Shown here: piece after piece, positions 31,717-51,865 of the stretch
Numbering within the stretch: the stretch's first letter is position 1
How the letters are laid out: every line of letters begins with the position of its first letter
NCBI GenBank assembly: GCA_964645835.1
Contig: CAZYDG010000080.1
Span: 1-64,000 of the forward strand
DNA: 64,000 nucleotides
From: an uncultured Syntrophaceae bacterium
Lineage (GTDB): Bacteria; Desulfobacterota; Syntrophia; Syntrophales; UBA8958
Direction of reading: 5' to 3'
The notes under the pieces: generated by a model
Told to the model about the DNA's origin: nothing
Seen by the model: only the letters and a program-made list of their open reading frames with translations
Databases searched by the model: none
Position numbers and translations under genes: made by a program

Positions 31717-34700
31717 GTGATAAAAGATAACGAAAAAATCGGTGCTGTCATGGTGGTCGGAGCCGGGATCGCAGGTATCCAGGCTTCTCTCGATTTGGCC
31801 AATTCCGGAATGAAGGTATATCTCGTGGAAAAGGGAATCAGCATCGGCGGCGTCATGGCCCAGCTGGACAAGACATTCCCGACGAACGACTGTTCAGCCT
31901 GCATCCTTTCCCCGAAGCTGGTTGAAGTAGGCCGTCATCCAAATGTGGAAATCCTGACCCAGCGGACTGTCGAGGCCGTAGAGGGAGAGGCGGGCCGTTT
32001 CAAGGTTCGTCTGACAAGGGCGCCGCGTTACGTTAACCTGAACAAATGTACGGGCTGCGGTGATTGTGCCAAGGTCTGCCCCGTTAACGTTCCTTCCGAT
32101 TTCAATGAACGCCTCTCCGAAAGACAGGCTACATACCGCCACTTTCCCCAGGCAATTCCCAGCGGTTTTGCCATAGATAAATTGGGAACATCTCCCTGTA
32201 AAGCAAACTGCCCAACTCATATCAGTGTCCAGGGTTATGTGGCCCTGATCGGCGCCGGGAAGTTCAAAGAAGCCCTTAAACTCATTAAGCAGGACAATCC
32301 CTTTCCCATCGTCTGCGGCCGCGTTTGTAACCATCCTTGCGAGACGGCATGTATGCGGGGTAAGGTGGATGATCCCATCGATATTATGCATCTGAAGCAG
32401 TTTGTCGCCGATCTGGATCTGAATGCCGAAACGCGCTATGTTCCCGAAAAGAAAGAAAGCAAGGGCAAGAAGGTCGCCATCGTCGGCGCCGGACCATCCA
32501 GTTTGACCTGCGCTTATTACCTGGCTATCGAGGGCTATGATGTGGACGTCTTTGAAGCCCTGCCCGTAGCGGGCGGCTGGCTTGCCGTCGGCATCCCCGA
32601 ATACCGGCTGCCCAAGAAAGTCCTGAAGGCCGAGATTCAGGTCATTGAAGATCTGGGCGTGAAGATCCATCTCAACACACGAATCGGTAAAGACATTTCT
32701 TTCGATAAACTCCAGAAAGATTACAACGCCGTCTTCATCGGCTGCGGAACCATGAAGAGCAGCAAGCTCAACATCCCCGGCGAGGACATGCAGGGCGTCA
32801 TCCACGGTGTTGACTATCTCATGCGCGTCAACCTGGGGGAAAAGGTCGCCCTGGGCGACAAGGTTGCTGTAGTCGGCGGCGGAAACGTGGCCATGGATGC
32901 AGTCCGGACCGCCGTCAGAATGGGGACCAAGGATGTCTTTATCCTCTACCGCCGGACCCGTGCGGAAATGCCTGCTGCGCCAGAGGAAATCGAAGAGGCC
33001 ATTGAAGAAGGCGTTGAGATGAAATTTCTCGTCGCCCCCAAGCGCGTCGTCGGCAAGGACGGCAAAGTGACAGGTATTGAATGTACAAGGATGGAGTTGG
33101 GTGAACCCGATAAAAGCGGCCGCCGCCGCCCCATCGAGATCAAGGGGTCCGAATTCATCGTTGAATGCGATGCCATCGTGCCCGCCATCGGCCAGGAGGC
33201 TGACCTTTCTTTCATTACGCAGGAAAGCGGCGTCTCCATCAATAAATGGAACAACATCGATTACGATGAACTGACGTATGCAACGACGACTCCCGGTATC
33301 TTCTCCGGCGGTGATGTCGTTACGGGTCCCCAGACCGTTGTCAAGGCTGTCTATGCCGGCAAGGAAGCGGCGAAATCCATCAACCGCTACTTGTCGGGTG
33401 AGGATATAAAGGCCGGCAGGGAGAAAGATTGGACCAAGGATCTGGCCGATAAGGCCGATGTCTCCAAAGTGCCCAAGAGCCCCCGCACGAAATATCCCCT
33501 CATGAAACCCGAAGACCGCCGGACAAACTTCAAGGAAGTCGGCCTCGGCTTCGATGAAGCGCAAGCCAAGGCGGAAGCCCTGCGCTGCCTTAACTGCGGG
33601 ATCTGTTCCGAGTGCTACCAGTGCGTTGACGCCTGTATCGCCGGGGCGATCAACCACGAAGATACATATGAGGAAGAGATGATCGAGGTCGGCGCCGTCA
33701 TCGCGTCGCCCGGATTTGAGATATTTGACGCCGGTATTCGTGGCGAATACGGATACGGTACGTTCAAGAACGTCGTAACAGCCATCCAGTTCGAGCGGAT
33801 CCTGTCGGCATCGGGCCCTTATTTCGGTCACGTGCAGCGGATTTCCGATGGCGTGGAACCGAAAAAAGTCGCCTTTATCCAGTGCGTAGGTTCCCGTGAT
33901 ACGTCCTGTGATAACAGCTGGTGTTCTTCCGTCTGCTGCATGTACGCGACGAAGGAAGCGATTATCGGCAAGGAACACGCAAAAAATCTAGAACCGACCA
34001 TCTTCTACATGGACATTCGCGCCCATGGAAAGGACTTCGACCGGTTTGTCAACCGGGCCAAGAACGAATACGGTATTCGTTATATCCGTTCCATGCCCTC
34101 CACCATTAAGGAACTTCAGCAGTCCAAGAACCTGCTGATCAAATATGTCCAGGAAGACGGCAGCCTTGTAGAAGAGGAATTCGACATGGTCGTTCTTTCT
34201 GTAGGCTTGACGCCGCCCAAAGAGGCCGCCCAGCTTGCCAAGGCAATGGGAGTCAATTTGGAAGAACACGGTTTCTGCGCTACGGCCTTGGACAATCCAG
34301 TCCAGAGCAGCCGGGAAGGGATCTTTGTCTGCGGCGCCTTCGGCGGTCCGAAAGACATACCCGAGACGGTCATGGAGGCCAGCAGCGCCGCCGCCTGTGC
34401 ATCGGGAATTCTTGCCAGCCAGCGGGGCACCCTGATCACGGCTGAAGAATTGCCAATGGAAAACGATCTCCGCGGCATCGGCCCACGGACGGGCGTCTTT
34501 GTCTGTCACTGCGGCATCAATATCGGCGGCGTCGTCAATGTCCCCGAGGTGGTGGAATACTGCAAGACCCTTCCCAATGTCGTCTATGCGACGGATAACC
34601 TCTTTACCTGTTCTCAGGATACGGCGGTCAAGATGGGCGAAGTCATCAAGGAACAAAACTTAAGCCGTGTCGTCGTCGCCTCCTGCTCACCCCGGACCCA

Positions 34701-36141
34701 TGAAGGGCTTTTCCAGGAAAACTGCGAGAAGGCCGGTCTTAATCGCTATCTGTTCGAGATGGCCAATATCCGCGACCAGGATTCCTGGGTCCACATGCAT
34801 GAACCGAAGGAAGCAACGGAAAAGGCCAAAGACCTTGTCCGCATGTCCATCGCCAAGGCCCAGTTCCTAAAACCTCTGAAACCGGGTCAGTTATCCGTCA
34901 ACCGCGCCACCATGATTATCGGCGGCGGTCTGGCCGGTATTACGGCGGCCCTTGCGCTGGCGGAACAGGGTTTTGAATCTTATATCATCGAGAAAAAGCC
35001 AGTTTTGGGCGGTAATTACAGGGATCTTTATTTCACACTGGAAGGCCTTGATACGAAGAAGCATTTGGCCGGCCTTCTGGATAAGGTGAAAGCCAGCAAA
35101 CTCATCCATGTCTATGCAGGTGCCGATATCGAAAAGATTGAAGGCTTCATCGGCAACTACAAGACGACGATCAAGAACAAGGACGGCCAGGCAACCTTTG
35201 AGCACGGTGTCGTCATCGTCGCCACCGGCGCTTATGAACTGGAAACCAGCGAATACCTCCACGGCCAGTCGGCAAACGTCGTCACCCAGCGGGACCTGGA
35301 AAAGATGCTCGCCGAAAAGGATGCCAAGGCGACCCAGGCCAAGAGCGTCGTCATGATTCAGTGTGTCGGGTCACGTATCCCCGAGCGGCCCTATTGCAGC
35401 CGTTATTGTTGCTCCGAGGCCATGAAGAATGCCCTCAAGATCAAAGAGATGGATCCGGAAAAGGATGTCACGATCATTTACCGCGATATCCGCACCTTCG
35501 GGTTGAAGGAAGATTATTACAAGAAAGCCCGCGAGCTTAATGTCAAGTTTGTTCGCTATGATGAAGACCGGAAACCGGAGGTCACCCAGAGCGGCAACCA
35601 GGTTTCCATCAGAGTCTTCGATCCGATCCTCAATGGCCCGGTCGATTTAGCGGCCGATCTGCTGGCCCTGTCCGTCGGTTCCGTTCCCAATCCTGAGAAT
35701 GCGGAGATTGGCCAGCGGCTGAAGGTCCCGACCAATCAGGACGGCTTCTTCCTTGAGGCCCATGTGAAGCTTCGTCCCGTCGATTTTGCAACGGACGGCG
35801 TCTTCATGTGCGGCATGGCCCATGCGCCGAAACTCAGCGAAGACGCCATTGTCCAGGCCAATGCGGCGGTGTCTCGCGCCTGCACTATCCTGACGAAAGA
35901 CTTCATCGAAGCGGAAGGAAAGACGGCTTTCGTCAATAAGGATCGCTGCTCCGCTTGTGGCCTCTGCGAGGAGAACTGCCCCTTCGGCGCCATTTCGGTG
36001 AATGTTGTCGAGGGATGCGCAGAAGTAAACGCCGTCCTGTGCAAAGGCTGCGGCGTCTGCACGGCCTCTTGCCGGATGAACGCCGTCGATCTAAACGGTT
36101 TCAGCAACGAAGAGGAATTGGAACAGATATATAATATGTAA
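31717..36141 (+). CDS. hdrA: Giant HdrA-like flavoprotein (HdrL-type: HdrA module, inserted GltD/NfnB-like module, second HdrA module)
   Basis: 1474 aa. Several FAD Rossmann motifs (VVGAGIAGI, VAIVGAGPSS, VAVVGGGNVAMD, IIGGGLAGITAAL). Two HdrA signatures (CVGSRD...CSSVCC and CVGSRIPERPYCSRYCC). Several CxxCxxCxxxCP ferredoxin motifs. GltD-like Fe-S region (CGRVCNHPCETAC). GTG start with RBS GAGGTGG. Confidence 0.85.
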   Translation: MIKDNEKIGAVMVVGAGIAGIQASLDLANSGMKVYLVEKGISIGGVMAQLDKTFPTNDCSACILSPKLVEVGRHPNVEILTQRTVEAVEGEAGRFKVRLTRAPRYVNLNKCTGCGDCAKVCPVNVPSDFNERLSERQATYRHFPQAIPSGFAIDKLGTSPCKANCPTHISVQGYVALIGAGKFKEALKLIKQDNPFPIVCGRVCNHPCETACMRGKVDDPIDIMHLKQFVADLDLNAETRYVPEKKESKGKKVAIVGAGPSSLTCAYYLAIEGYDVDVFEALPVAGGWLAVGIPEYRLPKKVLKAEIQVIEDLGVKIHLNTRIGKDISFDKLQKDYNAVFIGCGTMKSSKLNIPGEDMQGVIHGVDYLMRVNLGEKVALGDKVAVVGGGNVAMDAVRTAVRMGTKDVFILYRRTRAEMPAAPEEIEEAIEEGVEMKFLVAPKRVVGKDGKVTGIECTRMELGEPDKSGRRRPIEIKGSEFIVECDAIVPAIGQEADLSFITQESGVSINKWNNIDYDELTYATTTPGIFSGGDVVTGPQTVVKAVYAGKEAAKSINRYLSGEDIKAGREKDWTKDLADKADVSKVPKSPRTKYPLMKPEDRRTNFKEVGLGFDEAQAKAEALRCLNCGICSECYQCVDACIAGAINHEDTYEEEMIEVGAVIASPGFEIFDAGIRGEYGYGTFKNVVTAIQFERILSASGPYFGHVQRISDGVEPKKVAFIQCVGSRDTSCDNSWCSSVCCMYATKEAIIGKEHAKNLEPTIFYMDIRAHGKDFDRFVNRAKNEYGIRYIRSMPSTIKELQQSKNLLIKYVQEDGSLVEEEFDMVVLSVGLTPPKEAAQLAKAMGVNLEEHGFCATALDNPVQSSREGIFVCGAFGGPKDIPETVMEASSAAACASGILASQRGTLITAEELPMENDLRGIGPRTGVFVCHCGINIGGVVNVPEVVEYCKTLPNVVYATDNLFTCSQDTAVKMGEVIKEQNLSRVVVASCSPRTHEGLFQENCEKAGLNRYLFEMANIRDQDSWVHMHEPKEATEKAKDLVRMSIAKAQFLKPLKPGQLSVNRATMIIGGGLAGITAALALAEQGFESYIIEKKPVLGGNYRDLYFTLEGLDTKKHLAGLLDKVKASKLIHVYAGADIEKIEGFIGNYKTTIKNKDGQATFEHGVVIVATGAYELETSEYLHGQSANVVTQRDLEKMLAEKDAKATQAKSVVMIQCVGSRIPERPYCSRYCCSEAMKNALKIKEMDPEKDVTIIYRDIRTFGLKEDYYKKARELNVKFVRYDEDRKPEVTQSGNQVSIRVFDPILNGPVDLAADLLALSVGSVPNPENAEIGQRLKVPTNQDGFFLEAHVKLRPVDFATDGVFMCGMAHAPKLSEDAIVQANAAVSRACTILTKDFIEAEGKTAFVNKDRCSACGLCEENCPFGAISVNVVEGCAEVNAVLCKGCGVCTASCRMNAVDLNGFSNEEELEQIYNM

Positions 36142-36189
36142 ACTAAGGTAAATGGCTGCTAAAGCCAATTGCCAATGGAGGGAGTATAT

Positions 36190-36627
36190 ATGGCCGAAGA
36201 TTCAACAAACAAGGAATGGGTACCGAAAATCGTTGCCATTGTCTGCAATTGGTGTACTTACGCGGGCGCCGATCTGGCTGGTATCAGCAGAATTCAGTAT
36301 CCGCCGAATGTACGCATCATGCGCGTTCCCTGCACGGGAAGGATCAACCCTTTTTACATCGTGAAAGCCTTGCAGACGGGAGCCGACGGCGTTCTCGTAT
36401 CGGGTTGACACCCCGGTGAATGCCACTATATTTCGGGAAATCTGGTGGCGCGCCGCAAGTTTGCGACGTTAAAAAGTTTCCTGGACTACATCGGTGTGGA
36501 AGGTGACAGGACCATTTTTACATGGGTGTCAGCTTCTGAAGGAGAGCGTTTCGCCAATGTCATCAAAGGCGTGACGGCGAAGGTAAAAGCCCTCGGTCCG
36601 CCCGCCCGGCTGGTTAAGTCTTTGTAA
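36190..36627 (+). CDS. mvhD: MvhD (methyl-viologen-reducing hydrogenase delta subunit) homolog with in-frame UGA, predicted selenocysteine
   Basis: ORFs 36169-36408 and 36445-36627 share one frame, separated only by TGA 36406-36408. The translation VSG-U-HPGECHY aligns the UGA with the conserved Cys of the MvhD GCHxGDCHY motif. N-terminal CNWC and C-terminal [10 protein letters not shown] motifs are conserved. RBS GGAGGGA. Confidence 0.8.
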
Positions 36628-36687: not shown

Positions 36688-37695
36688 GTGGAAAACATAG
36701 ATAAAAAGTTACGGGAAGAGGCAAAGAGGCTCCTCGAAGAGAAGAAGGTCGAAGTCATTGTAGGTTATGAAGAGGGAACCCTTCCCTTGACAGCCACGCC
36801 CTGCTTTATCACCCAGCCCGAGGAGGCCGAAAAACTGGTCTGGAACGCCTATTGCACCCAGAACCTGGCGAAGTTCGTCCATGACCTCATTTCGCAGCAT
36901 AAAAACGCCCAGAAACGCGTGAAGCCGGAAGATAAGAAAAAGAAGATCGTCGGTGTCATCGCACGGGGTTGCACCACCCGTTCCATTATTCTGCATATCC
37001 AGGAACGGCAATACAGCCGTGAGGAAGTCGTCGTCATCGGTGTTCCCTGCACAGGCTATGTGGATCGAAAGACCTTAAGTGTTGCCTTGAACGGCGAAGA
37101 AGTCATCGGCGGAAGCTTGAACGGCGATCAGTTTACAATCCAGACACCGGGCGGCGAAAAGAAACTGGCTTTGGCCGATGTTCTGGCCGAAAATTGCGTG
37201 ACCTGCCGGTTCAACAATCCCCTGATCAGCGACGTTATGATCGGTTCGCCTGCGCCGGCAATGAAGCCCGAGCAGGAATACGACGATGTGAAGGCTTTTG
37301 AGAGCATGTCGGCCGATGAGCGATGGGCCTATTTTCAAAAGGAGATGGGCAAGTGCATCCGTTGCTACGCCTGCCGTCAGGCCTGTCCCTCCTGCTATTG
37401 CCCCACCTGTTTCATGGAGCAGAGTCAGCCCCAGTGGGTCGGTATCGGTGAGGGTGCGTCGGATACCCAGGTATTTCAGATCATGCGGATATTCCACATG
37501 GCCGGTCGTTGTGTGGACTGCGGGTCCTGCATCACCGTTTGTCCCATGGGTGTCGATTTGAGAAAATTCCTTAAGAAGCTCGACAAAGACGGCTTTGAGA
37601 TGTTTGGCGGCCGCTGCGGGTCTTCCCTGGAAGATCGACCGATCCTTTCCACATTCAAAGAACACGAGGCGGAAGATTTCATCTATAATCCTTAA
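36688..37695 (+). CDS. Fe-S cluster oxidoreductase subunit (two 4Fe-4S ferredoxin-type motifs; FrhB/FlxC-like), exact family unclear
   Basis: CIRCYACRQACPSCYCPTC and CVDCGSCITVCPMG cluster-binding motifs. GTG start with RBS GAGGA. Confidence 0.55.
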   Translation: MENIDKKLREEAKRLLEEKKVEVIVGYEEGTLPLTATPCFITQPEEAEKLVWNAYCTQNLAKFVHDLISQHKNAQKRVKPEDKKKKIVGVIARGCTTRSIILHIQERQYSREEVVVIGVPCTGYVDRKTLSVALNGEEVIGGSLNGDQFTIQTPGGEKKLALADVLAENCVTCRFNNPLISDVMIGSPAPAMKPEQEYDDVKAFESMSADERWAYFQKEMGKCIRCYACRQACPSCYCPTCFMEQSQPQWVGIGEGASDTQVFQIMRIFHMAGRCVDCGSCITVCPMGVDLRKFLKKLDKDGFEMFGGRCGSSLEDRPILSTFKEHEAEDFIYNP

Positions 37696-37782
37696 AGCCG
37701 CATGCCTGGAAAAAAGATCCTGGTCAAGTCCTACGGGTGCTGGCCATTGACGGAAGATGATCAAGTAAGAAATGGAGCAAGC

Positions 37783-38304
37783 ATGAAAACCTTTCTCGAT
37801 GAAGTAAATGAAAAGATAAACGGAGTGCCGATTCAGCGCTGCTACCACTGTCGCAAATGCACGGCCGGGTGCCCGTTGGCCTTCACCATGGAGTACAATC
37901 CAAACCGGGTAATCAAGATGATACAGATGGGTCAGAAGAGAGAGGTCCTCTCCAGTGCTACGATCTGGCTCTGTGCATCTTGCGAGACCTGTATTACCCG
38001 TTGCCCGAATAATGTGGATATTGCACGGATGATGGATGTCCTTAGGGAAATGGCCATAGCGGAAGGCGTGGCCGCGAAAGAGGCGAATGTCCTGAAGTTC
38101 CATGAGGCGTTCCTCTGGAGTATCAAATTTGGCGGACGGATCAATGAGCCGCTTTTGATGGTCAATTACAAGCTTAAATCCGGTGACCTGTTCGCCGATA
38201 TGGGCATGGGCATCGATATGTTCATGAAGGGCAAGTTGTCCCTGGTGTCACCCCGGACGAAGGATCTCAAATCGGTTAAGCAGATATTTGAAAAAACGAA
38301 GTAA
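37783..38304 (+). CDS. hdrC: Heterodisulfide reductase subunit C-like (two 4Fe-4S)
   Basis: CYHCRKCTAGCP and CASCETCITRCP motifs. Size and helical C-terminal half typical of HdrC. Confidence 0.8.
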   Translation: MKTFLDEVNEKINGVPIQRCYHCRKCTAGCPLAFTMEYNPNRVIKMIQMGQKREVLSSATIWLCASCETCITRCPNNVDIARMMDVLREMAIAEGVAAKEANVLKFHEAFLWSIKFGGRINEPLLMVNYKLKSGDLFADMGMGIDMFMKGKLSLVSPRTKDLKSVKQIFEKTK

Positions 38305-38328
38305 GCATAACGCACAAGGAGGCAAGCG

Positions 38329-39180
38329 TTGAAAGTTTCATATTATCCGGGATGTTCCCTGCATGGGACGGCGAAGGAATATGACCAGTCCGTCAAAGCG
38401 GTAAGCAAGGCCCTGGACATCGAACTCAAAGAAGTCCAGGATTGGTCTTGCTGCGGCGCCACATCGGCCCATGCCACGAATTTTAAGCTGTCCGTAGCGC
38501 TTCCGGCACGAAATCTCGTGGCGATCGAAAAGAGCGCGGACAAAGAGGTAATGGTTCCCTGCGCCGCCTGTTTTAACCGCTTTAAAACGGCTCAGCATAA
38601 TATGGCCCATGACGCCTCACTGAAGAAAGAAATCGAAGGCATTCTCGGCAGTTCCTATGCTGGAACGGCCGTGGTGAAGAATCCCATCGGAATCATCCAT
38701 GATGACGTGGGTCTTGATGTCCTGGCGAAGAAAGTTGTAAAGAAGCTTGCCGGTCTTAAGCCTGTCTCCTACTATGGATGCCTCCTTGTGAGACCGCCTG
38801 AGGCCTGCGAGTTCGAGAATGTCGAAAACCCCTATATGCTCGATGATATCCTCAGAACCCTGGGGGCCGATGTCAAGCCCTGGTCGTACAAAACGGATTG
38901 CTGTGGTGGAAGCTTAACCATCAGCCGGACGGATATCGTTCACAAACTCGTGGATAAACTGATGACCATGGCCCGTGAAGCGGGGGCAAACTGTGTCGTA
39001 ACGGCCTGCCCCGTCTGCCTGACGAACCTGGACGCCCGGGTGAGCGAAAATCTGCAGCTTCCCGTCTTTTATTTCACGGAACTTGTGGCTTTGGCCCTTG
39101 GACTTCCGGGAGCATCCGACTGGTTCAAATTGCATATGGTAGACCCGACACCGCTCATGGGCGGCTTGGGCTTGATCTAA
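38329..39180 (+). CDS. hdrB: Heterodisulfide reductase subunit B-like (two CCG domains)
   Basis: Two Cys-rich CCG motifs (CxxxCCG...C; WSCCGATSAH and DCCGGSL). TTG start with RBS AAGGAGG. Confidence 0.8.
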   Translation: MKVSYYPGCSLHGTAKEYDQSVKAVSKALDIELKEVQDWSCCGATSAHATNFKLSVALPARNLVAIEKSADKEVMVPCAACFNRFKTAQHNMAHDASLKKEIEGILGSSYAGTAVVKNPIGIIHDDVGLDVLAKKVVKKLAGLKPVSYYGCLLVRPPEACEFENVENPYMLDDILRTLGADVKPWSYKTDCCGGSLTISRTDIVHKLVDKLMTMAREAGANCVVTACPVCLTNLDARVSENLQLPVFYFTELVALALGLPGASDWFKLHMVDPTPLMGGLGLI

Positions 39181-39212
39181 AATATCCTAAATTTAGACGA
39201 TTGAAGGACGAT

Positions 39213-40235
39213 ATGGAAAAACGGTTGATAAAGAAAGACGCTCTGGCAGGGATCGTAAAAAAGATAGGCGCCGATCTGACCATCTATGCACCGGTGAAGG
39301 TCGAGGACAACGTCTTGTTCAAAGTGCTGGAAAAGGGGGAAGAGCCCCTCACCGTATATGCGAACAGCAAGAATGCGCCGAAGAACTTTTTCTTTCCCCG
39401 TACGGAAGTGATGATGCGCTATACGCGGACCACCAAGGGTATGGAACTCAAGAACGAAGAGCTTGCGTCTACGGAATCCGTCCTATTCGGCGTCCGCCCT
39501 TGTGATACGCGCAGTTTTGCTCTTTTGGACATGCTTTTCGATCAGGAAAAATATAAGGATCCCTACTATATCGAAAAGAGGAACAAGACAACGATCGTCT
39601 CCCTGGCCTGCTCACATCCTCCCTATTCAACGTGCTTCTGCACCTCAGTGGGCGGTCGTCCCGTGGATGACAAGGGCAGCGATGTCCTGCTGACGGACCT
39701 GGGGGATCAATATCTGGCGGAATTCGTGACGCCCAAGGGAGAAAAACTGACCAAATATTTCGGTGACGCAAAGGCCGATGACGGGGCGGAAAAGAAGAAG
39801 GAAGCTATTGCCGCCCAGGCGGAAGGTGAGATAAAATCACATATCCCCGCTAAGGAGATCAAACCGATCCTTGACGTGAACTTCGAGCACCCCTTCTGGA
39901 ACACGATTCATCAGAAGTGTCTGGCCTGCGGAACCTGCACGTACCTGTGCCCCACATGCCACTGTTTTGATATCAGCGACGAGTCAAAATATGATGACGG
40001 CAGGCGCCTGAGAAATTGGGACTCCTGCATGTTTGCCCTCTTTACGAAAGAGACCTCGGGCCACAATCCCCGCACGTCTCAAAAGGAGAGATGGCGTCAG
40101 CGGACCATGCATAAATTCAAGTATTACGTGGATAACTTCGATGCCATCGCCTGTGTGGGTTGCGGTCGGTGTGTCATGTCCTGTCCGGTTAATATTGACA
40201 TCCGGAAAATCGTCGAAGACATTTCGAAATTATAG
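39213..40235 (+). CDS. AsrA/HydB-like Fe-S subunit (anaerobic sulfite reductase subunit A / sulfhydrogenase beta family)
   Basis: About 340 aa with C-terminal CLACGTCTYLCPTCHC and CVGCGRCVMSCP ferredoxin motifs. Pairs with the downstream FAD/2Fe-2S subunit, as in AsrAB/HydBG. Confidence 0.7.
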   Translation: MEKRLIKKDALAGIVKKIGADLTIYAPVKVEDNVLFKVLEKGEEPLTVYANSKNAPKNFFFPRTEVMMRYTRTTKGMELKNEELASTESVLFGVRPCDTRSFALLDMLFDQEKYKDPYYIEKRNKTTIVSLACSHPPYSTCFCTSVGGRPVDDKGSDVLLTDLGDQYLAEFVTPKGEKLTKYFGDAKADDGAEKKKEAIAAQAEGEIKSHIPAKEIKPILDVNFEHPFWNTIHQKCLACGTCTYLCPTCHCFDISDESKYDDGRRLRNWDSCMFALFTKETSGHNPRTSQKERWRQRTMHKFKYYVDNFDAIACVGCGRCVMSCPVNIDIRKIVEDISKL

Positions 40236-40252
40236 CAGCGCGGGAGATTGTC

Positions 40253-41092
40253 ATGCAGAATCCATATGTACCTTATCCGGTTGAACTGATCAAAATCGTG
40301 ACTGAAGTGGACACGAAGGACATCAAGACCTTTCGCTTTGCCTTCGTGAATAAGGAAGACGAGGCAAAATACAGTTACATTCCCGGTCAGTTCGGTGAAC
40401 TGTCCGTCTTCGGGAAAGGAGAGTCGCCCATCGGGATCGCCTCTTCCCCCACGAACCCCGGTTATGTCGAATTCACCGTTCAGAAGGCCGGTGTCGTAAC
40501 GTCGGCCCTCCATGAGATGGAAGAGGGTACCCGGATGGGCCTTCGCGGCCCCTTGGGCAATTCCTGGCCCATTGAATTTCTGGAAGGGAAAAACATCGTC
40601 ATCGTCGGCGGCGGTTTCGCCTTCACGACCCTGCGGTCCCTCATTCAATACATGATTCACGACGAAAACAGAAAGCGCTTCGGCAAGATTACAGTCATCT
40701 ACGGAGCCAGAAACCCGGGCTTGCTGCTTTACAAGGACGAACTGGAAGTTTGGGCGAAGCGGGGTGACATTGACCTGAATGTCACCGTGGACAAGGGCGA
40801 TGCCGGCTGGAAGGGGCGCGAAGGGTTTGTGCCCACGGTCTGCAAGGAAGTGGCGCCGAGCCCCGAGAATGCCGTGACCCTGATCTGTGGACCCCCGATC
40901 ATGATCCGCTTTACGCTGCCTGTTTTCTTTGAATTGGGCTTCTCTAACGAGAATATCATCACATCTCTGGAAATGCGCATGAAATGCGGTATCGGCAAGT
41001 GCGGCCGTTGCAATGTGGGCAGCAAGTATGTCTGCAAGGACGGTCCGGTCTTTTCCCTGGCCGAGCTTGACAAGCTGACGAAAGAGTATTAA
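40253..41092 (+). CDS. AsrB/HydG/PyrK-like FAD/NAD(P)-binding subunit with C-terminal 2Fe-2S
   Basis: Ferredoxin-NADP-reductase-like fold motifs (RFAFV, GGGFAFTTL). C-terminal CGIGKCGRCNVG cluster. Confidence 0.75.
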   Translation: MQNPYVPYPVELIKIVTEVDTKDIKTFRFAFVNKEDEAKYSYIPGQFGELSVFGKGESPIGIASSPTNPGYVEFTVQKAGVVTSALHEMEEGTRMGLRGPLGNSWPIEFLEGKNIVIVGGGFAFTTLRSLIQYMIHDENRKRFGKITVIYGARNPGLLLYKDELEVWAKRGDIDLNVTVDKGDAGWKGREGFVPTVCKEVAPSPENAVTLICGPPIMIRFTLPVFFELGFSNENIITSLEMRMKCGIGKCGRCNVGSKYVCKDGPVFSLAELDKLTKEY

Positions 41093-41187
41093 TTTCTTTT
41101 CAGTTTTTTCCAGGGACAGAAAAGTGCTGATCAGAGGGGATGCCTGGGTATCCCCTCTTTTTTTATAGCAGAGGAGACTGATAAAAA

Positions 41188-42024
41188 TTGAATACCATAA
41201 CAAAGAAAATCCAGTTGTCCGAGAATGTATGCCAGATGGACATTGAGGCCCCGGAGATTGCGCGGAAGCGCAGGGCGGGGCAATTCGTCATCCTGAAGGT
41301 GAATGAAACGGGGGAGCGGATCCCCTTGACGATTGTCGACTCAGATGCCGCCAAGGGAACGATAACGATCATCTTTCAGATTGTCGGAAAAACGACGGAT
41401 CTCATGTCGCATCTGAACGTTGGCGATAGCTTTCAGGATATCCAGGGACCGTTGGGAAACCCTACAGAGGTCGAGAACTACGGCCATGTAGTGTGCATCG
41501 GCGGCGGTGTCGGCGTCGGGGTCATCTATCCTATCACGAAGGCTTTAAAAGAAGCGGGAAATAAGGTGACGTCCATCATCGGTGCCCGTACGAAAGACCT
41601 GGTGATCCTGGAAGATGAGATGCGCAAGGTTAGTGATACTCTCGTCGTCACAACGGATGACGGGAGTTACGGTGTCCACGGTTTTGTCAGTGCCGTCCTT
41701 CAGAAGATGATCGCCGAAGGAGAAAAAATAGACCGGGTCTTTGCTATCGGTCCTGTTCCCATGATGAGGGTTGTCGCCGATGTCACCCGTTCCCACGAGA
41801 TCAAGACAATCGTCAGCCTGAATGCGATTATGGTCGACGCTACGGGCATGTGCGGCGCCTGTCGGGTGGCCGTTGCGGGGAAGACGAAGTTCACATGCGT
41901 GGACGGTCCGGAATTCGACGGCCACGAAGTGGATTTCGACATATTGACAAAACGGCTCCGCATGTATTGCGAAGAGGAAAAAAAGTCCTATGAAGGGCAC
42001 AGGTGTGGATGGAATGGAAACTGA
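41188..42024 (+). CDS. nfnA: NfnA/SudB-like subunit (FAD, 2Fe-2S) of NADH-dependent ferredoxin:NADP+ oxidoreductase
   Basis: PyrK-like fold with CGACRVAV...C cluster. Immediately followed by, and overlapping, the GltD-like partner. Confidence 0.75.
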   Translation: MNTITKKIQLSENVCQMDIEAPEIARKRRAGQFVILKVNETGERIPLTIVDSDAAKGTITIIFQIVGKTTDLMSHLNVGDSFQDIQGPLGNPTEVENYGHVVCIGGGVGVGVIYPITKALKEAGNKVTSIIGARTKDLVILEDEMRKVSDTLVVTTDDGSYGVHGFVSAVLQKMIAEGEKIDRVFAIGPVPMMRVVADVTRSHEIKTIVSLNAIMVDATGMCGACRVAVAGKTKFTCVDGPEFDGHEVDFDILTKRLRMYCEEEKKSYEGHRCGWNGN

Positions 42025-43435
42025 ACCGAAAAAAGAGAAGAAAGAAAAGATTCCCCGGCAGGCTATGCCGGAGCAGGAGCCGGGGGAACGGCGACGAAAC
42101 TTTGATGAAGTGCCCCTGGGGTATAGTTCTGAAACAGCCATTTTAGAGGCTTCGCGTTGCATCCAGTGTAAAAAGCCGGGCTGCATTACCGGTTGCCCTG
42201 TTGATGTAAAGATTCCCGAATTTATCAAACAGATCGTCGAAGGGGATTTTCTGGCCGCTGCAAAGACGCTCAAGGAAACGAACAGCCTTCCGGCTGTTTG
42301 CGGCCGGGTCTGTCCCCAGGAGGATCAATGCGAAAAACTCTGTATCCTCGGCAAGAAAGGTGATCCCGTGGCCATTGGTCGCCTGGAGCGTTTTGCCGCA
42401 GATTTCGAACGGGCGTCGGGAACGGTTGAAATTCCTGCCGTTATTGAGGCAAAGGGGAAAAAGGTCGCCATCGTCGGCGCCGGTCCATCGGGGCTCACAA
42501 TCGCCGGCGATCTGGTCAAACTCGGTTATGACGTCACGATCTTCGAGGCCCTTCACAAGGCCGGAGGGGTACTGATATATGGGATTCCTGAATTCCGCCT
42601 GCCCAAGGCCATCGTCGATGCCGAGGTTGCGTACCTTGAAAGGCTGGGCGTCAAGATTGTCCTCAACGCCGTTGTCGGCAGGCTAAAGACCGTGGATGAG
42701 CTTTTTGAAGAAGGATTCGACGCCGTCTACATTGCCGTCGGCGCCGGTGCCCCCGTTTTTATGAATATCCCAGGAGAGAATCTGCTGGGCATTTACTCGG
42801 CCAACGAATACCTGACGCGGTCGAATCTTATGAAGGCATACCGGTTCCCCGAATACGATACACCTATCGTCCGCGGGAAGAACGTCGCTGTTGTTGGCGG
42901 CGGCAATGTGGCAATGGATTCCGTCCGGACGGCCTTGCGTCTGGGGGCGGAAAATGCCTATATCGTTTATCGCCGTAGCGAAGTGGAGTTGCCTGCCCGG
43001 AAGGAGGAGGTCCATCATGCGCAGGAGGAAGGTGTCCAGTTTCTCCTGCTGACGAATCCTGTTGGGTACATCGGTGACGAACACGGCTGGGTGACGGGCA
43101 TGAGATGCATCCGTATGGAACTTGGTGAACCGGATGCTTCAGGAAGGCGCAGCCCCGTTCCGATTCCGGATTCGGAGTTCATCATTGATGTGGATACAGT
43201 CGTCGTATCCGTAGGGACCATGGCCAATCCCGTCGTCCCGTCGACGACACCCGGCCTGGAGACAAATCGCTGGGGCTATATCGTGACAAAAGGTGAATCG
43301 GGCGAGACGACCCGTCAAGGCGTCTATGCCGGAGGTGACATTGTGACAGGGTCCGCCACGGTCATCCTGGCCATGGGCGCAGGCCGTCAAGCCGCTCGCG
43401 CCATTCACGAGTATCTTTCCGGGAAAGGGTGTTAG
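42014..43435 (+). CDS. nfnB: NfnB/SudA-like subunit (GltD-type: two 4Fe-4S, FAD and NAD(P)H sites)
   Basis: CIQCKKPGCITGCP and CGRVCPQEDQCEKLC Fe-S motifs. Two Rossmann motifs (VAIVGAGPSGL, VAVVGGGNVAMD). ATG overlaps the nfnA stop. Confidence 0.8.
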   Translation: METEPKKEKKEKIPRQAMPEQEPGERRRNFDEVPLGYSSETAILEASRCIQCKKPGCITGCPVDVKIPEFIKQIVEGDFLAAAKTLKETNSLPAVCGRVCPQEDQCEKLCILGKKGDPVAIGRLERFAADFERASGTVEIPAVIEAKGKKVAIVGAGPSGLTIAGDLVKLGYDVTIFEALHKAGGVLIYGIPEFRLPKAIVDAEVAYLERLGVKIVLNAVVGRLKTVDELFEEGFDAVYIAVGAGAPVFMNIPGENLLGIYSANEYLTRSNLMKAYRFPEYDTPIVRGKNVAVVGGGNVAMDSVRTALRLGAENAYIVYRRSEVELPARKEEVHHAQEEGVQFLLLTNPVGYIGDEHGWVTGMRCIRMELGEPDASGRRSPVPIPDSEFIIDVDTVVVSVGTMANPVVPSTTPGLETNRWGYIVTKGESGETTRQGVYAGGDIVTGSATVILAMGAGRQAARAIHEYLSGKGC

Positions 43436-49286: not shown

Positions 49287-50252
49287 TCAAAGCGTGATTT
49301 TTCCTCGGCAGGAACTTCCCATTCCTGCGGTGCAGCCGTAACAATGTTCCCCGGTGACGATCTGGCGGGTGGCGAGTTTGGCCAGGTTAAATTGTGAAAT
49401 ATGCTCCGGGGCACCGTGATTCACGGTCATGCCCAGCATCTGGTTGAAGTCGCAATCATAGAGCTTACCGTCCCAGGCAACAGACAGGGTGGTTTTGCAC
49501 ATGACGTTCGAAAGGGTCTCCCGATTGAAGGCATTGACCAAAGTCGCCATATAGTCTTCATAATTGCCGGTTCTTTGAAGATAGGCCAAATACCGGCCAA
49601 TGGGCATGTTCGTAATGCAAAAAAGATTGTTGAAAGAGATACCGAATCTTTCTTTGAGCGCTTTCCGGTAATGGTCTTCGAGACTTTCCTGTAAGCCTGG
49701 AAGATAGGCCCCGCTGGGATTATAGACCAGATTCAGGATCAGTCCATTATCGCCCTGCCCATACCCTTTTTTATTGATTTTCAGAAGGCAGTCAATTAGC
49801 CGAGAATAGACGCCTGCACCTCGTTGCCGGTCTGTTGTCTTTAAATCCATATGGGGAAAGGATATGATGATTTCTACGCGATAACGGGCATAGAGATCAA
49901 GAAGATGGGCATATGCTTTTTCAAGAAGAATCACGCCGTTTGTACGTACAAGCAATCGGCGGCCCAAAGCAGCGCATTGTTCAAGAAACCAGGTGAAATC
50001 GGGGTGCATCTCCGGGGTTCCGCCCGTGATGTCGATAGCCGGAATGGCATGACGTCTCAAAACCTGAAGGCACATCTCCATCACTGACCGCGGCATGAGT
50101 TCCAGCCGCCCCGGACCCGCTTCGACATGGCAATGCCTGCATTCCAGGTTGCACCGGTATCCAAGGTTGATCTGGAATACATCGATTCCTGCCGCTTTCA
50201 AAGGGCTGTCCGACATCTGTTCGAAGGATGGATGCATGGAGCTTCCGTCCAT
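49287..50252 (-). CDS. Radical SAM / Cys-rich-domain protein of the ArsS-like family
   Basis: CNLECRHC (CxxxCxxC) rSAM motif. C-terminal Cys-rich tail (CDFNQ...EHCYGCTAGMGSSCRG). Translationally coupled to the upstream AhpD-like gene. Confidence 0.8.
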   Translation of the reverse strand: MDGSSMHPSFEQMSDSPLKAAGIDVFQINLGYRCNLECRHCHVEAGPGRLELMPRSVMEMCLQVLRRHAIPAIDITGGTPEMHPDFTWFLEQCAALGRRLLVRTNGVILLEKAYAHLLDLYARYRVEIIISFPHMDLKTTDRQRGAGVYSRLIDCLLKINKKGYGQGDNGLILNLVYNPSGAYLPGLQESLEDHYRKALKERFGISFNNLFCITNMPIGRYLAYLQRTGNYEDYMATLVNAFNRETLSNVMCKTTLSVAWDGKLYDCDFNQMLGMTVNHGAPEHISQFNLAKLATRQIVTGEHCYGCTAGMGSSCRGKITL

Positions 50253-50254
50253 TG

Positions 50255-50587
50255 TTACATTTCCTTTTTCTTAACGATTTTTCTCATTTGCGTGGAATGA
50301 GCCAGAACGACGCCGGCAGTGATGGCCGCGCCTACATGAACGGATTCCATCATTTCCTCTTGGGAAATGCCAAGAGAAAGGCACTCATTTGTATAAGCGT
50401 CGATGCAATAAGGGCACCTCTGCGTTGTGGACACGGCCAGGGCGATCAGCGCTTTTTCCCTTGCCGTCAGGGCGCCGGCTTTCATCGCCTCGCCATAGTA
50501 TGCAAAATACATCTCCCCCAAGGCCGGTGCATATTCGCCGATATTTGTGAAATCCGTCAGGTCTTTTGACTCATAATAGTCAGACAT
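50255..50587 (-). CDS. AhpD-like / carboxymuconolactone decarboxylase family protein (CxxC peroxidase-like)
   Basis: 110 aa. CMD-family signature TQRCPYCIDAY. RBS AAGGAAA. Confidence 0.75.
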   Translation of the reverse strand: MSDYYESKDLTDFTNIGEYAPALGEMYFAYYGEAMKAGALTAREKALIALAVSTTQRCPYCIDAYTNECLSLGISQEEMMESVHVGAAITAGVVLAHSTQMRKIVKKKEM

Positions 50588-50622
50588 ACAGCCGTTTCCT
50601 TTCCATGTCTTGTCCCGTTATG

Positions 50623-51243
50623 TCAGGGACGCAGGAGCCGTGCAGCACCTGCCATGGTTTCGACAATATCGTACATGTTTGAAATGTGCCCCACGGCAAT
50701 TTGGTCTCCAAGGCTGAAATAGTTGATGCAGGTCCCGCAAACCAGAATCTCTGTCCCGGCCTTTTCCAATGACTGCAAATCATCCAGGACAGTCGAGTCT
50801 CCAGTAGCCAGCTTGACGCCGGCATTATAACAAATAATGGTATCGGGCAGAGGTTTCAATTGTAGAAGGGTATGGATAAAGCTTCGTATCAGAACATCCC
50901 CCAGAGTATCATCACCTCGTCCCATGCGGTTGTCCGAAAGGACTACAACAAGGGCGCCCGTTGCCTTTTCAGTAGAGCAGGCAAGCTCTTCAGCAAAGGC
51001 CTCGGCATCCATCTGGTGCTCCTCCGACGCTGCTGTTCGGGCCAAAAAAATTTCCCGGATACCGTTTCCTCTATCAGTTACAGAGACAGTGCAGGCCATT
51101 TTAACAGCGAGTCGCCGAATATTCTCCACTGCGGCGTCATTATCGACGAGGATGGTCATGGCTTGGTTGTCTTCGATGGCCTTTTTCGCCAAAATTACAG
51201 GTTGCGGGCAGGCAAGCCCTCGGGCGTCAATGGTTACCGGCAT
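50623..51243 (-). CDS. yedF: YedF-like protein (N-terminal TusA/SirA-like CPxP domain fused to a DsrE/DsrF-like domain)
   Basis: ARGLACPQPV TusA motif, followed by a DsrE-like domain with conserved Cys (ILVCGTC). Confidence 0.75.
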   Translation of the reverse strand: MPVTIDARGLACPQPVILAKKAIEDNQAMTILVDNDAAVENIRRLAVKMACTVSVTDRGNGIREIFLARTAASEEHQMDAEAFAEELACSTEKATGALVVVLSDNRMGRGDDTLGDVLIRSFIHTLLQLKPLPDTIICYNAGVKLATGDSTVLDDLQSLEKAGTEILVCGTCINYFSLGDQIAVGHISNMYDIVETMAGAARLLRP

Positions 51244-51337: not shown

Positions 51338-51865
51338 GAATTGAGATGTGCGGGGCATTGGTCTTACGGTTCAGGTGATTTTCCCCTATTTCAATTGCAG
51401 TTTACGGTAGTTATACCAGTTGGGGAAAATCATATTTACCTCCAGACCAAACCCCGCCCATCCTGTACAGATTTTATCAAAGTATTTGTGGTTCTGTGGT
51501 GTATTACAGATGGAATTGAGATGTGCGGGGCATTGGTCTTTACGGTTCAGGTGATTTTCCCCTATTTCAATTGCAGTTTACGGTAGTTATACCAGTCGGG
51601 AAAAATCATATTCACCTTCAGACCAAAACCCCGCCCATCCTGGACAGATTTTTTCAAAGTATTTGTGGTTCTGTGGTGTATTACAGATGGAATTGAGATG
51701 TGCGGGGCATTGGTCTTACGGTTCAGGTGATTTTCCCCTATTTCAATCGCAATTAACAGCAGTTATACCAGTCGGGAAAAATCATATTCACCTCCAGACC
51801 AAAACTCCGCCCATCTTGGGCAGCTTTTATTAAAGTCTTTTGGGCTTTTGTGGTGTATTCGGAAA
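51338..51865. repeat. Three tandem direct repeats of about 176 bp, each with nested inverted repeats (predicted extended hairpin)
   Basis: Units begin at 51338, 51513 and 51690 (gaattgagatgtgcggggcattggtc...). Within each unit GCGGGGCATTGGTC pairs with GACCAAACCCCGC, and GATTTTCCCC pairs with GGGGAAAATC. Confidence 0.8.

Follow-up and report, generated by a model that had tools for sequence, protein, structure and literature searches.

The bacterial selenocysteine insertion sequence (SECIS), as in Escherichia coli fdhF and in the bacterial SECIS (bSECIS) consensus, is a stem-loop that lies within the coding sequence shortly 3′ of the UGA codon, carries Gs in its apical loop and is needed only when the codon is UGA. 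Selenocysteine (Sec)-containing MvhD proteins are an established selenoprotein family (PMC13188914, PMC2702500, bioRxiv 10.64898/2026.04.10.717634), documented both in Deltaproteobacteria and in methanogens, as an initial annotation of the locus described here had stated. Desulfobacterium autotrophicum HRM2 carries Sec-containing mvhD1, 2, 3 and 5 beside hdrA/hdrL (Strittmatter et al. 2009, PMC2702500), and VhuD and FrhD-type MvhD selenoproteins are known from the archaeal Methanococcales, Methanopyrus and Asgard archaea (PMC13188914, PMC11227280); the motif given for the PF02662 family in review is “CxxU,” with two Sec residues in an archaeal VhuD (PMC13188914). In BamF, which belongs to the Geobacter metallireducens class II benzoyl-CoA reductase, Sec19 is the equivalent of a non-ligand Cys near the cluster (bioRxiv 10.64898/2026.04.10.717634). 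Here, we analyzed a 64,000-nucleotide (nt) stretch of DNA, hereafter the window (GenBank assembly GCA_964645835.1, contig CAZYDG010000080.1, positions 1 to 64,000), from an uncultured Syntrophaceae bacterium, in which positions 36190–36627 are very probably a single mvhD gene whose UGA codon 73 is recoded to Sec. The gene is a new, unannotated member of the documented Sec-containing MvhD family and does not represent a new kind of system. The gene and its start and recoding signals are as follows.

36190–36627, + strand: mvhD, predicted selenoprotein gene; 145 codons, predicted Sec at codon 73, TAA stop; PF02662 match over the full profile
36177–36184, + strand: Shine-Dalgarno sequence GGAGGGAG, 5 nt before the ATG, read from the sequence
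36406–36408, + strand: in-frame UGA (predicted Sec73), next base C; TGA alternates with Cys codons in homologs

From the ATG at 36190 to the TAA at 36625–36627 the gene forms one reading frame, of which the TGA at 36406–36408 is the sole interruption. Open reading frame (ORF) calling accordingly yields two same-frame pieces, the first ending at 36408 and the second starting from a GTG at 36445 (36445–36627), and both the sequence and the ORF list bear out the initial annotation in that these pieces are parted only by the TGA. Its identification of the read-through product as MvhD also holds: the translation contains CNWC at residues 19–22 and VSG-*-HPGECHY at residues 70–80 and, with Cys placed at the TGA site, residues 14–136 match the Pfam FlpD/MvhD profile PF02662 over its full length (positions 1–123 of 123; 172.9 bits, the gathering cutoff being 22.3; E = 3.2e-51). 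The protein shares 46–50% identity over ~130 residues with the solved MvhD chains (E = 7e-48 to 5odc_D). It has exactly five Cys-type positions, C19, C22, C48, U73 (the TGA) and C78, all of which align with conserved Cys residues of the solved MvhDs, and thus the MvhD five-Cys pattern C-x-x-C ... P-C ... G-C-H-x-G-D/E-C-H-Y is present. Among the 40 verified genes of the window, the TGA of mvhD is the only internal stop, and a scan of the window for TGA-split ORF pairs returned shadow frames and no second convincing TGA-split gene.

In GenBank, the gene is split into two coding sequences (CDSs), MDQ5985053.1 (72 aa) and MDQ5985054.1 (60 aa), in the record of Syntrophus sp. SKADARSKE-3 (Syntrophales; GCA_030920355.1, contig JARLUC010000001.1), a bacterial endosymbiont of the anaerobic amoeba Pelomyxa schiedti; the paper describing this symbiont makes no mention of selenium. 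Many relatives have likewise been entered in public databases as truncated, 72-aa “hydrogenase iron-sulfur subunit” proteins, one of which was found on 51 contigs.

For comparison, one genome per species was scanned, which gave 80 related loci, mostly from metagenome-assembled genomes (MAGs) of Smithella and Syntrophales. At the homologous codon, 26 of the 80 genomes have TGA, 29 TGT and 25 TGC (54 Cys codons in total); the frame continues in all of them, so that no homolog is truncated at this site, and none of the 26 TGA loci contains a further stop or a frameshift. An HdrL gene upstream and an FeS protein gene downstream are common to all 26 TGA loci and at least 42 Cys loci, which are orthologs by virtue of this shared HdrL-MvhD-FeS synteny. 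In the TGA-type genes, the ratio of nonsynonymous to synonymous substitution rates (dN/dS) is 0.036 before the stop and 0.083 after it, at a dS of ~0.7–1.1; for codons +29 to +65 after the TGA, dN/dS is 0.083 at a dS of 1.08. The downstream part is under purifying selection, and therefore the C-terminal half is translated and functional. In a neighbor-joining tree of the codons outside the constrained RNA element described below, which lacks robustness, being built on only ~290 nt, two Smithella-like groups contain the Sec forms, and a few Cys orthologs (L018, L020 and L023) are nested among or beside these forms, and several Sec/Cys switches are therefore implied within the limits of this tree.

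The TGA is accompanied by conserved RNA structure, the elements of which are the following.

36421–36450, + strand: hairpin A, proposed core of the bacterial SECIS; 7–8 bp stem (U)GCCACUA / UGGUGGC(G), 14-nt loop containing GG
36450–36469, + strand: hairpin B, second element specific to the Sec group; 7 bp, AGUU loop
36418–36492, + strand: suppressed synonymous variation over codons +4 to +28, the putative full constrained RNA element, from codon entropy and dS
36433–36441 / 36476–36484, + strand: possible long-range helix (helix C), from pairing counts in Sec and Cys genes

In hairpin A, G36422–A36428 pair with U36443–C36449 (7 bp), with a possible extra pair U36421–G36450; the distance from the UGA to the start of the hairpin is 13 nt. 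The hairpin that had been drawn about 12 nt after the UGA is thus real, whereas its proposed inner AUUU/AAAU helix with a CGGG loop is not conserved, being found only here and in two relatives. All 27 TGA sequences (the 26 loci and the window) have an intact 7-bp stem, which decays in the Cys forms. Hairpin A is fully paired in 24/24 Sec genes, in 6 of 11 close Cys paralogs and in none of 42 distant Cys orthologs, in agreement with the earlier suggestion that its position suits a bacterial SECIS; the corresponding counts are 22/24, 3/11 and 0/42 for hairpin B, and 19/24, 0/11 and 1/42 for helix C. Furthermore, entropy at third positions and over whole codons drops in the Sec group, to 0.27 in codons +4 to +28, compared to 0.90 elsewhere (Mann–Whitney p = 1.7e-6), 11 of the 19 codons inside this interval having zero entropy against 2 of 72 outside, and dS is 0.33 there against 0.74 and 1.08 in the flanks. 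The Cys forms show no dip in synonymous entropy over codons +4 to +28. These patterns point to a constrained RNA element of ~75 nt, larger than the hairpin drawn earlier, which may consist of two hairpins or of a pseudoknot-like arrangement. The codon that follows the UGA (36409–36411) is CAC in 26 of 27 Sec-type genes, and CAT is common after the Cys codon in the Cys-type genes; UGA is followed by CAC in E. coli fdhF, too, as in the window gene.

An independent sample was obtained from metagenomes by scanning for the motif G-x-D-G-[VI]-x3-G-TGA-H-x-G-D-C-H-Y, in which the TGA is required and the Asp leaves out the Smithella type, which has Glu at this position. At least 120 contigs carry TGA at the homologous site, and among the matches listed, to which the following counts also refer, all encode an intact, full-length MvhD, at a median pairwise identity of 55% and a minimum of 33%. 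An uninterrupted stem of at least 6 bp that starts 10–19 nt from the U of the UGA is present in 109 of 112 distinct sequences, compared to 0 of 42 Cys orthologs (Fisher p = 1.3e-34). The commonest stem, CAUUACC-(GGA/UGGAU/UGUAC)-GGUAAUG, is formed from the His-Tyr and Gly-Asn codons, and other metagenomic Sec-type genes have the alternative stem GCCACUA/UAGUGGC; in the Smithella type this 5′ arm is combined with a more distant 3′ arm, hence its 14-nt loop. Across the subfamilies, the same 5′ arm from the Cys-His-Tyr codons is paired with differing 3′ arms, which is suggestive but does not amount to column-wise covariation. The three exceptions (L125, L182 and L190) make up one subfamily that lacks the proximal hairpin and has instead a 7-bp hairpin, ACCGCCA...UGGCGGU, ~40 nt after the UGA, at the position of Smithella hairpin B. 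The strongest evidence for what is likely a functional bacterial SECIS is that the UGA and a hairpin at a set spacing from it occur together in nucleotide sequences that are otherwise unrelated.

The predicted Sec does not lie in a CxxU motif: the N-terminal motif of the window protein is CNWC, with ordinary Cys codons, and the UGA is at G-U-H. CNWC with ordinary Cys at both positions is also found in all 120 metagenomic Sec-type genes listed. The MvhD family thus appears to have two Sec sites, the second of which, G-U-H, would be the one common in bacteria (at least 120 metagenomic genes), because all the metagenomic Sec-type genes listed keep CNWC. For archaeal VhuD, the positions of the two Sec residues were not found in the published accounts consulted, and when archaeal MvhD was used as a protein query, all matches were Cys-type and VhcD-like, the database storing no “U” letters. 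In the alignment to Methanothermobacter marburgensis MvhD, U73 corresponds to Cys67, H74 to His68 and E77 to Asp71, and C22, the second Cys of CNWC, corresponds to Cys16. In the M. marburgensis complex, Cys16 is described as an “additional” conserved cysteine that is not counted with the cluster, and an unknown ligand on HdrA Cys202/Cys205 is approached by both His68 and Asp71. Given that there are only five Cys-type positions and that the equivalent of C22 is not a ligand, U73 and the other three Cys would, by elimination, be the four ligands of a [2Fe-2S] cluster that homology predicts for the window protein, with U73 on the HdrA-facing side. The suggestion that Sec replaces a conserved [2Fe-2S] Cys therefore stands as far as the alignment of the TGA with the conserved Cys67 is concerned, and its ligand role follows by elimination only.

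Cys-type mvhD genes with 86–90% amino acid identity to the Sec type were also found outside the HdrL cluster (L005–L007, L009–L012, L015, L016 and L077). These “close Cys” genes had been candidates for orthologs of the Sec-type gene, which we rejected when a synteny check placed them in other genomic contexts, as paralogs. One copy (L006:5986–6438) is an orphan flanked by genes for a chromate transporter and an outer-membrane protein. One MAG (L003 and L009) carries both forms, the Sec copy within the cluster and the Cys copy at another place, only the 438-nt gene being alignable between them, and this co-occurrence might be a binning artefact. Because hairpin A is kept in 6 of the 11 close Cys copies, comparison of the genes suggests that the orphan Cys copies derived from the Sec-type gene, and such a paralog may be a selenium-independent spare subunit.

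An indication of selenium use comes from another gene of the window.

50623–51243, − strand: YedF selenium-metabolism protein; NCBIfam TIGR03527 equivalog at 210.6 bits (cutoff 110), profile positions 1–193 of 194

YedF is a marker of selenium use in the genome; its gene lies 14 kb from mvhD, outside the mvhD operon. A complete selA/selB/selC/selD set has been reported in a composite Smithella genome (Mukai et al., PMC5389517). On the same strand as yedF, the genes for ArsS, a 110-aa CMD/AhpD-like protein with an RCPYC motif and YedF are adjacent (49287–51243, −). ArsS belongs to a radical SAM “(seleno)protein” family (TIGR04167, 412 bits) and is here a Cys form, with the C-terminal sequence GSSCRG. 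Between yedF and a CoA-transferase gene, a 176-bp unit is repeated in 3.0 tandem copies with 92% matches (51338–51859).

Several results weigh against Sec insertion directed by a SECIS. No selA, selB, selC or selD gene and no tRNA gene was found in the 64-kb window and the 10 kb beyond each of its ends. Taken singly, the 65 nt that follow the UGA are not predicted to fold any better than shuffled sequences do (z = −0.46), and hence the significance of the hairpin is drawn only from the comparison of homologs. A generic best-hairpin energy failed to separate the Sec from the Cys forms (p = 0.22), and this test was replaced by the position-specific test for contiguous stems reported above. Within the Smithella group, RNAalifold detected no double-sided compensatory pair, only one-sided G-U/A-U changes, so that here the structure is supported by conservation and group specificity. 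Neither the whole window at the gathering score nor the region 36300–36560 at E ≤ 10 matched a SECIS model in Rfam: no other family was found in the window, and the region gave only a chance match to RT-5 (E = 6.4). The missing SECIS match weighs little, the bacterial SECIS models in Rfam being lineage-specific.

The only serious rival to Sec insertion is a recoding of the UGA, partly or wholly, to Cys by selC*, a tRNASec-like tRNA-Cys(UCA), brought in by a second SelB (SelB*) acting through the same hairpin, which would yield an all-Cys MvhD at least when selenium is scarce. The alternation of TGA with Cys codons and the SECIS hairpin are equally compatible with such a scheme, and its components occur in this part of the bacterial tree: selC* tRNA-Cys genes are present in the composite Smithella genome, selB* lies next to selC* in Syntrophobacterales, and a deltaproteobacterial selC* tRNA-Cys(UCA) is able to translate the opal Sec codon as Cys (Mukai et al., PMC5389517). 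However, all selC*-containing genomes carry the complete selABCD set, so Sec insertion is available there (PMC5389517), and the UCA anticodon is found in only some selC* tRNAs, others having GCA. If the product were always the Cys form, it would be difficult to see why 26 species should retain the TGA together with a costly SECIS, given that TGY is one mutation away and is used by the paralogs; the presence of the yedF gene also speaks for selenium use and against this rival. We thus consider Cys recoding improbable.

Less probable still is that the locus is a pseudogene, or that it encodes two short polypeptides of 72 and about 60 aa as implied by the public annotation, with its two CDSs and the GTG-started ORF after the TGA. 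A start at GTG 36445 would fall inside the conserved fold and lose the Cys78 ligand and the His-x-G-E motif, whereas 26 species-level genomes retain the TGA in spite of a divergence of dS ~1, with a dN/dS of 0.04–0.08 on both sides. The C-terminal half is functional, which therefore rules against both variants, and a TGA in the place of an invariant Cys, co-occurring with a hairpin, is the classic signature of a selenoprotein. The preference of the initial annotation for a genuine selenoprotein over a pseudogene is accordingly upheld by the TGA/Cys alternation in homologs, the hairpin tied to the TGA and the purifying selection that acts downstream of it. An error of sequencing or assembly would be conceivable because the source is a metagenome-assembled or single-cell-derived genome, but 26 independent assemblies have the identical TGA, as do at least 120 metagenomic contigs. 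We also rejected a reassignment of UGA as a sense codon (code 4 or 25): UGA is the stop of 10 of the 40 verified window genes, including those for YedF and ArsS, at ends that match the family profiles, and the homologs have Cys at the site, not Trp or Gly. Error and altered code are effectively refuted.

The predicted Sec-containing MvhD is encoded in a cluster with the following further components.

31717–36141, + strand: HdrL-type partner, an HdrA-like flavoprotein of 1474 aa that contains an NfnB/GltD-like insertion, from Pfam domains and HdrA alignment
36688–43435, + strand: rest of the cluster, from Pfam and NCBIfam matches

The HdrL-type gene ends 48 nt before mvhD, an arrangement conserved in at least 65 related loci. 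Its product is circularly rearranged relative to methanogen HdrA: residues 11–155 match HdrA 155–298, residues 155–636 are the inserted NfnB/GltD-like NAD(P)H module, residues 923–1099 match HdrA's N-terminal domain and residues 1335–1471 match the C-terminal ferredoxin domain. In the alignment to solved HdrA chains, Cys59/Cys62 of HdrL correspond to HdrA Cys202/205. The gene contains no Sec codon. Downstream of mvhD, the order is a 4Fe-4S protein, an HdrC-like protein, an HdrB-like protein (CCG), an AsrA/HydB-like protein, an AsrB/HydG-like FAD/NAD protein, an NfnA-like protein and an NfnB-like protein. The synteny of the cluster is kept in relatives, at 74–76% nucleotide identity over ~9.4 kb, and the Pfam matches in the cluster include no genes for hydrogenase large or small subunits or for the tungsten enzyme subunits BamB/BamC. 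Just past the 3′ end of the window, the same contig carries type VI secretion-like genes (L203:11548–19233), encoding VgrG-type Phage_GPD/Phage_base_V proteins, DUF2169 with pentapeptide repeats, DUF3540 and a PAAR-like toxin, in what is the genome of an intracellular symbiont of an amoeba.

By analogy to the canonical bacterial mechanism, the RNA structure starting 13 nt past the UGA would act as a SECIS, consisting of hairpin A and probably of further conserved structure up to ~85 nt downstream, and would recruit SelB-GTP-Sec-tRNASec to the ribosome, so that Sec would be inserted in place of termination. The product would be a 145-residue MvhD-type [2Fe-2S] adaptor that docks onto the HdrL-type HdrA/NfnB fusion encoded upstream and relays single electrons between the modules linked to NAD(P)H and the flavin of HdrA. 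The soluble HdrL-MvhD-HdrBC-type complex to which it would belong is presumably electron-bifurcating or confurcating in a syntrophic bacterium. The His that Sec would immediately precede and the acidic residue close by face the HdrA Cys pair in solved complexes, and selenium would therefore sit at the electron exit of the cluster. A more far-reaching proposal, which we put forward tentatively and rate just short of even, is that Sec is a direct selenolate ligand of the [2Fe-2S] cluster on the face that passes electrons to the HdrA Cys pair and flavin, and that this is a natural, widespread Sec-ligated cluster distinct from the non-ligand CxxU Sec of BamF, with the orphan Cys paralog of the Smithella lineage possibly serving as the spare and a selC* tRNA perhaps decoding the same UGA as Cys under selenium shortage.

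Once the TGA is recognized as a Sec codon, the main soluble Hdr-type complex regains an intact subunit in Smithella/Syntrophus, key syntrophic degraders of fatty acids and alkanes, represented here by the endosymbiont of Pelomyxa, and this reading implies a selenium requirement that is absent from the published description of this symbiosis. The natural Sec/Cys pairs at the cluster site, beside the HdrA-contacting His and acidic residues, could serve as probes. Beyond the new family member, the locus is of modest added interest for the probable ligand role of Sec, the lineage-specific SECIS architecture, the orphan Cys paralogs and the possible dual Sec/Cys decoding.

Compared to E. coli fdhF and the bSECIS consensus, the Smithella-type element differs in its 8-bp stem with an unusually large 14-nt loop, its second hairpin and a constraint that extends to ~85 nt, whereas most other Sec-MvhD genes among the matches listed have the compact CAUUACC-(3–5 nt)-GGUAAUG hairpin instead. 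With archaeal VhuD, the window protein shares the family and, by prediction, the [2Fe-2S] cluster and the adaptor role towards HdrA, and the Sec/Cys isoform pairs VhuD/VhcD of methanococci parallel the orphan Cys-type paralogs found here. In archaea, however, the SECIS lies in the 3′ untranslated region, whereas the candidate in the window is inside the coding sequence, and the archaeal CxxU corresponds to the other Cys site, where the window protein has a plain Cys (C22); its score against the archaeal VhuD equivalog NF045873 is below the cutoff (131.7 against 215 bits), and it is best regarded as a homolog of VhuD, not an ortholog. BamF resembles the predicted window protein in being an MvhD-homologous [2Fe-2S] adaptor with Sec that bridges an NADH/ferredoxin-oxidizing module and the HdrA-type BamE, the Cys59–Cys62 pair of which even has the same numbering as in the window HdrL, but BamF is more than 100 residues longer, its Sec19 contrasts with the G-U-H site, and BamB/BamC have no counterpart in the window cluster. 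D. autotrophicum differs in that its hdrL1 and hdrL3 carry a Sec codon, unlike the window HdrL, and in being another organism, the window coming from a member of Syntrophales that lives as an amoeba endosymbiont. The likeness to the latter system lies in a deltaproteobacterial MvhD with a known or, in the window, predicted in-frame Sec codon, located directly 3′ of an HdrA-type gene in an energy-limited anaerobe, and in the “HdrL” fusions of heterodisulfide reductase and glutamate synthase, which resemble the product of the 1474-aa window ORF.

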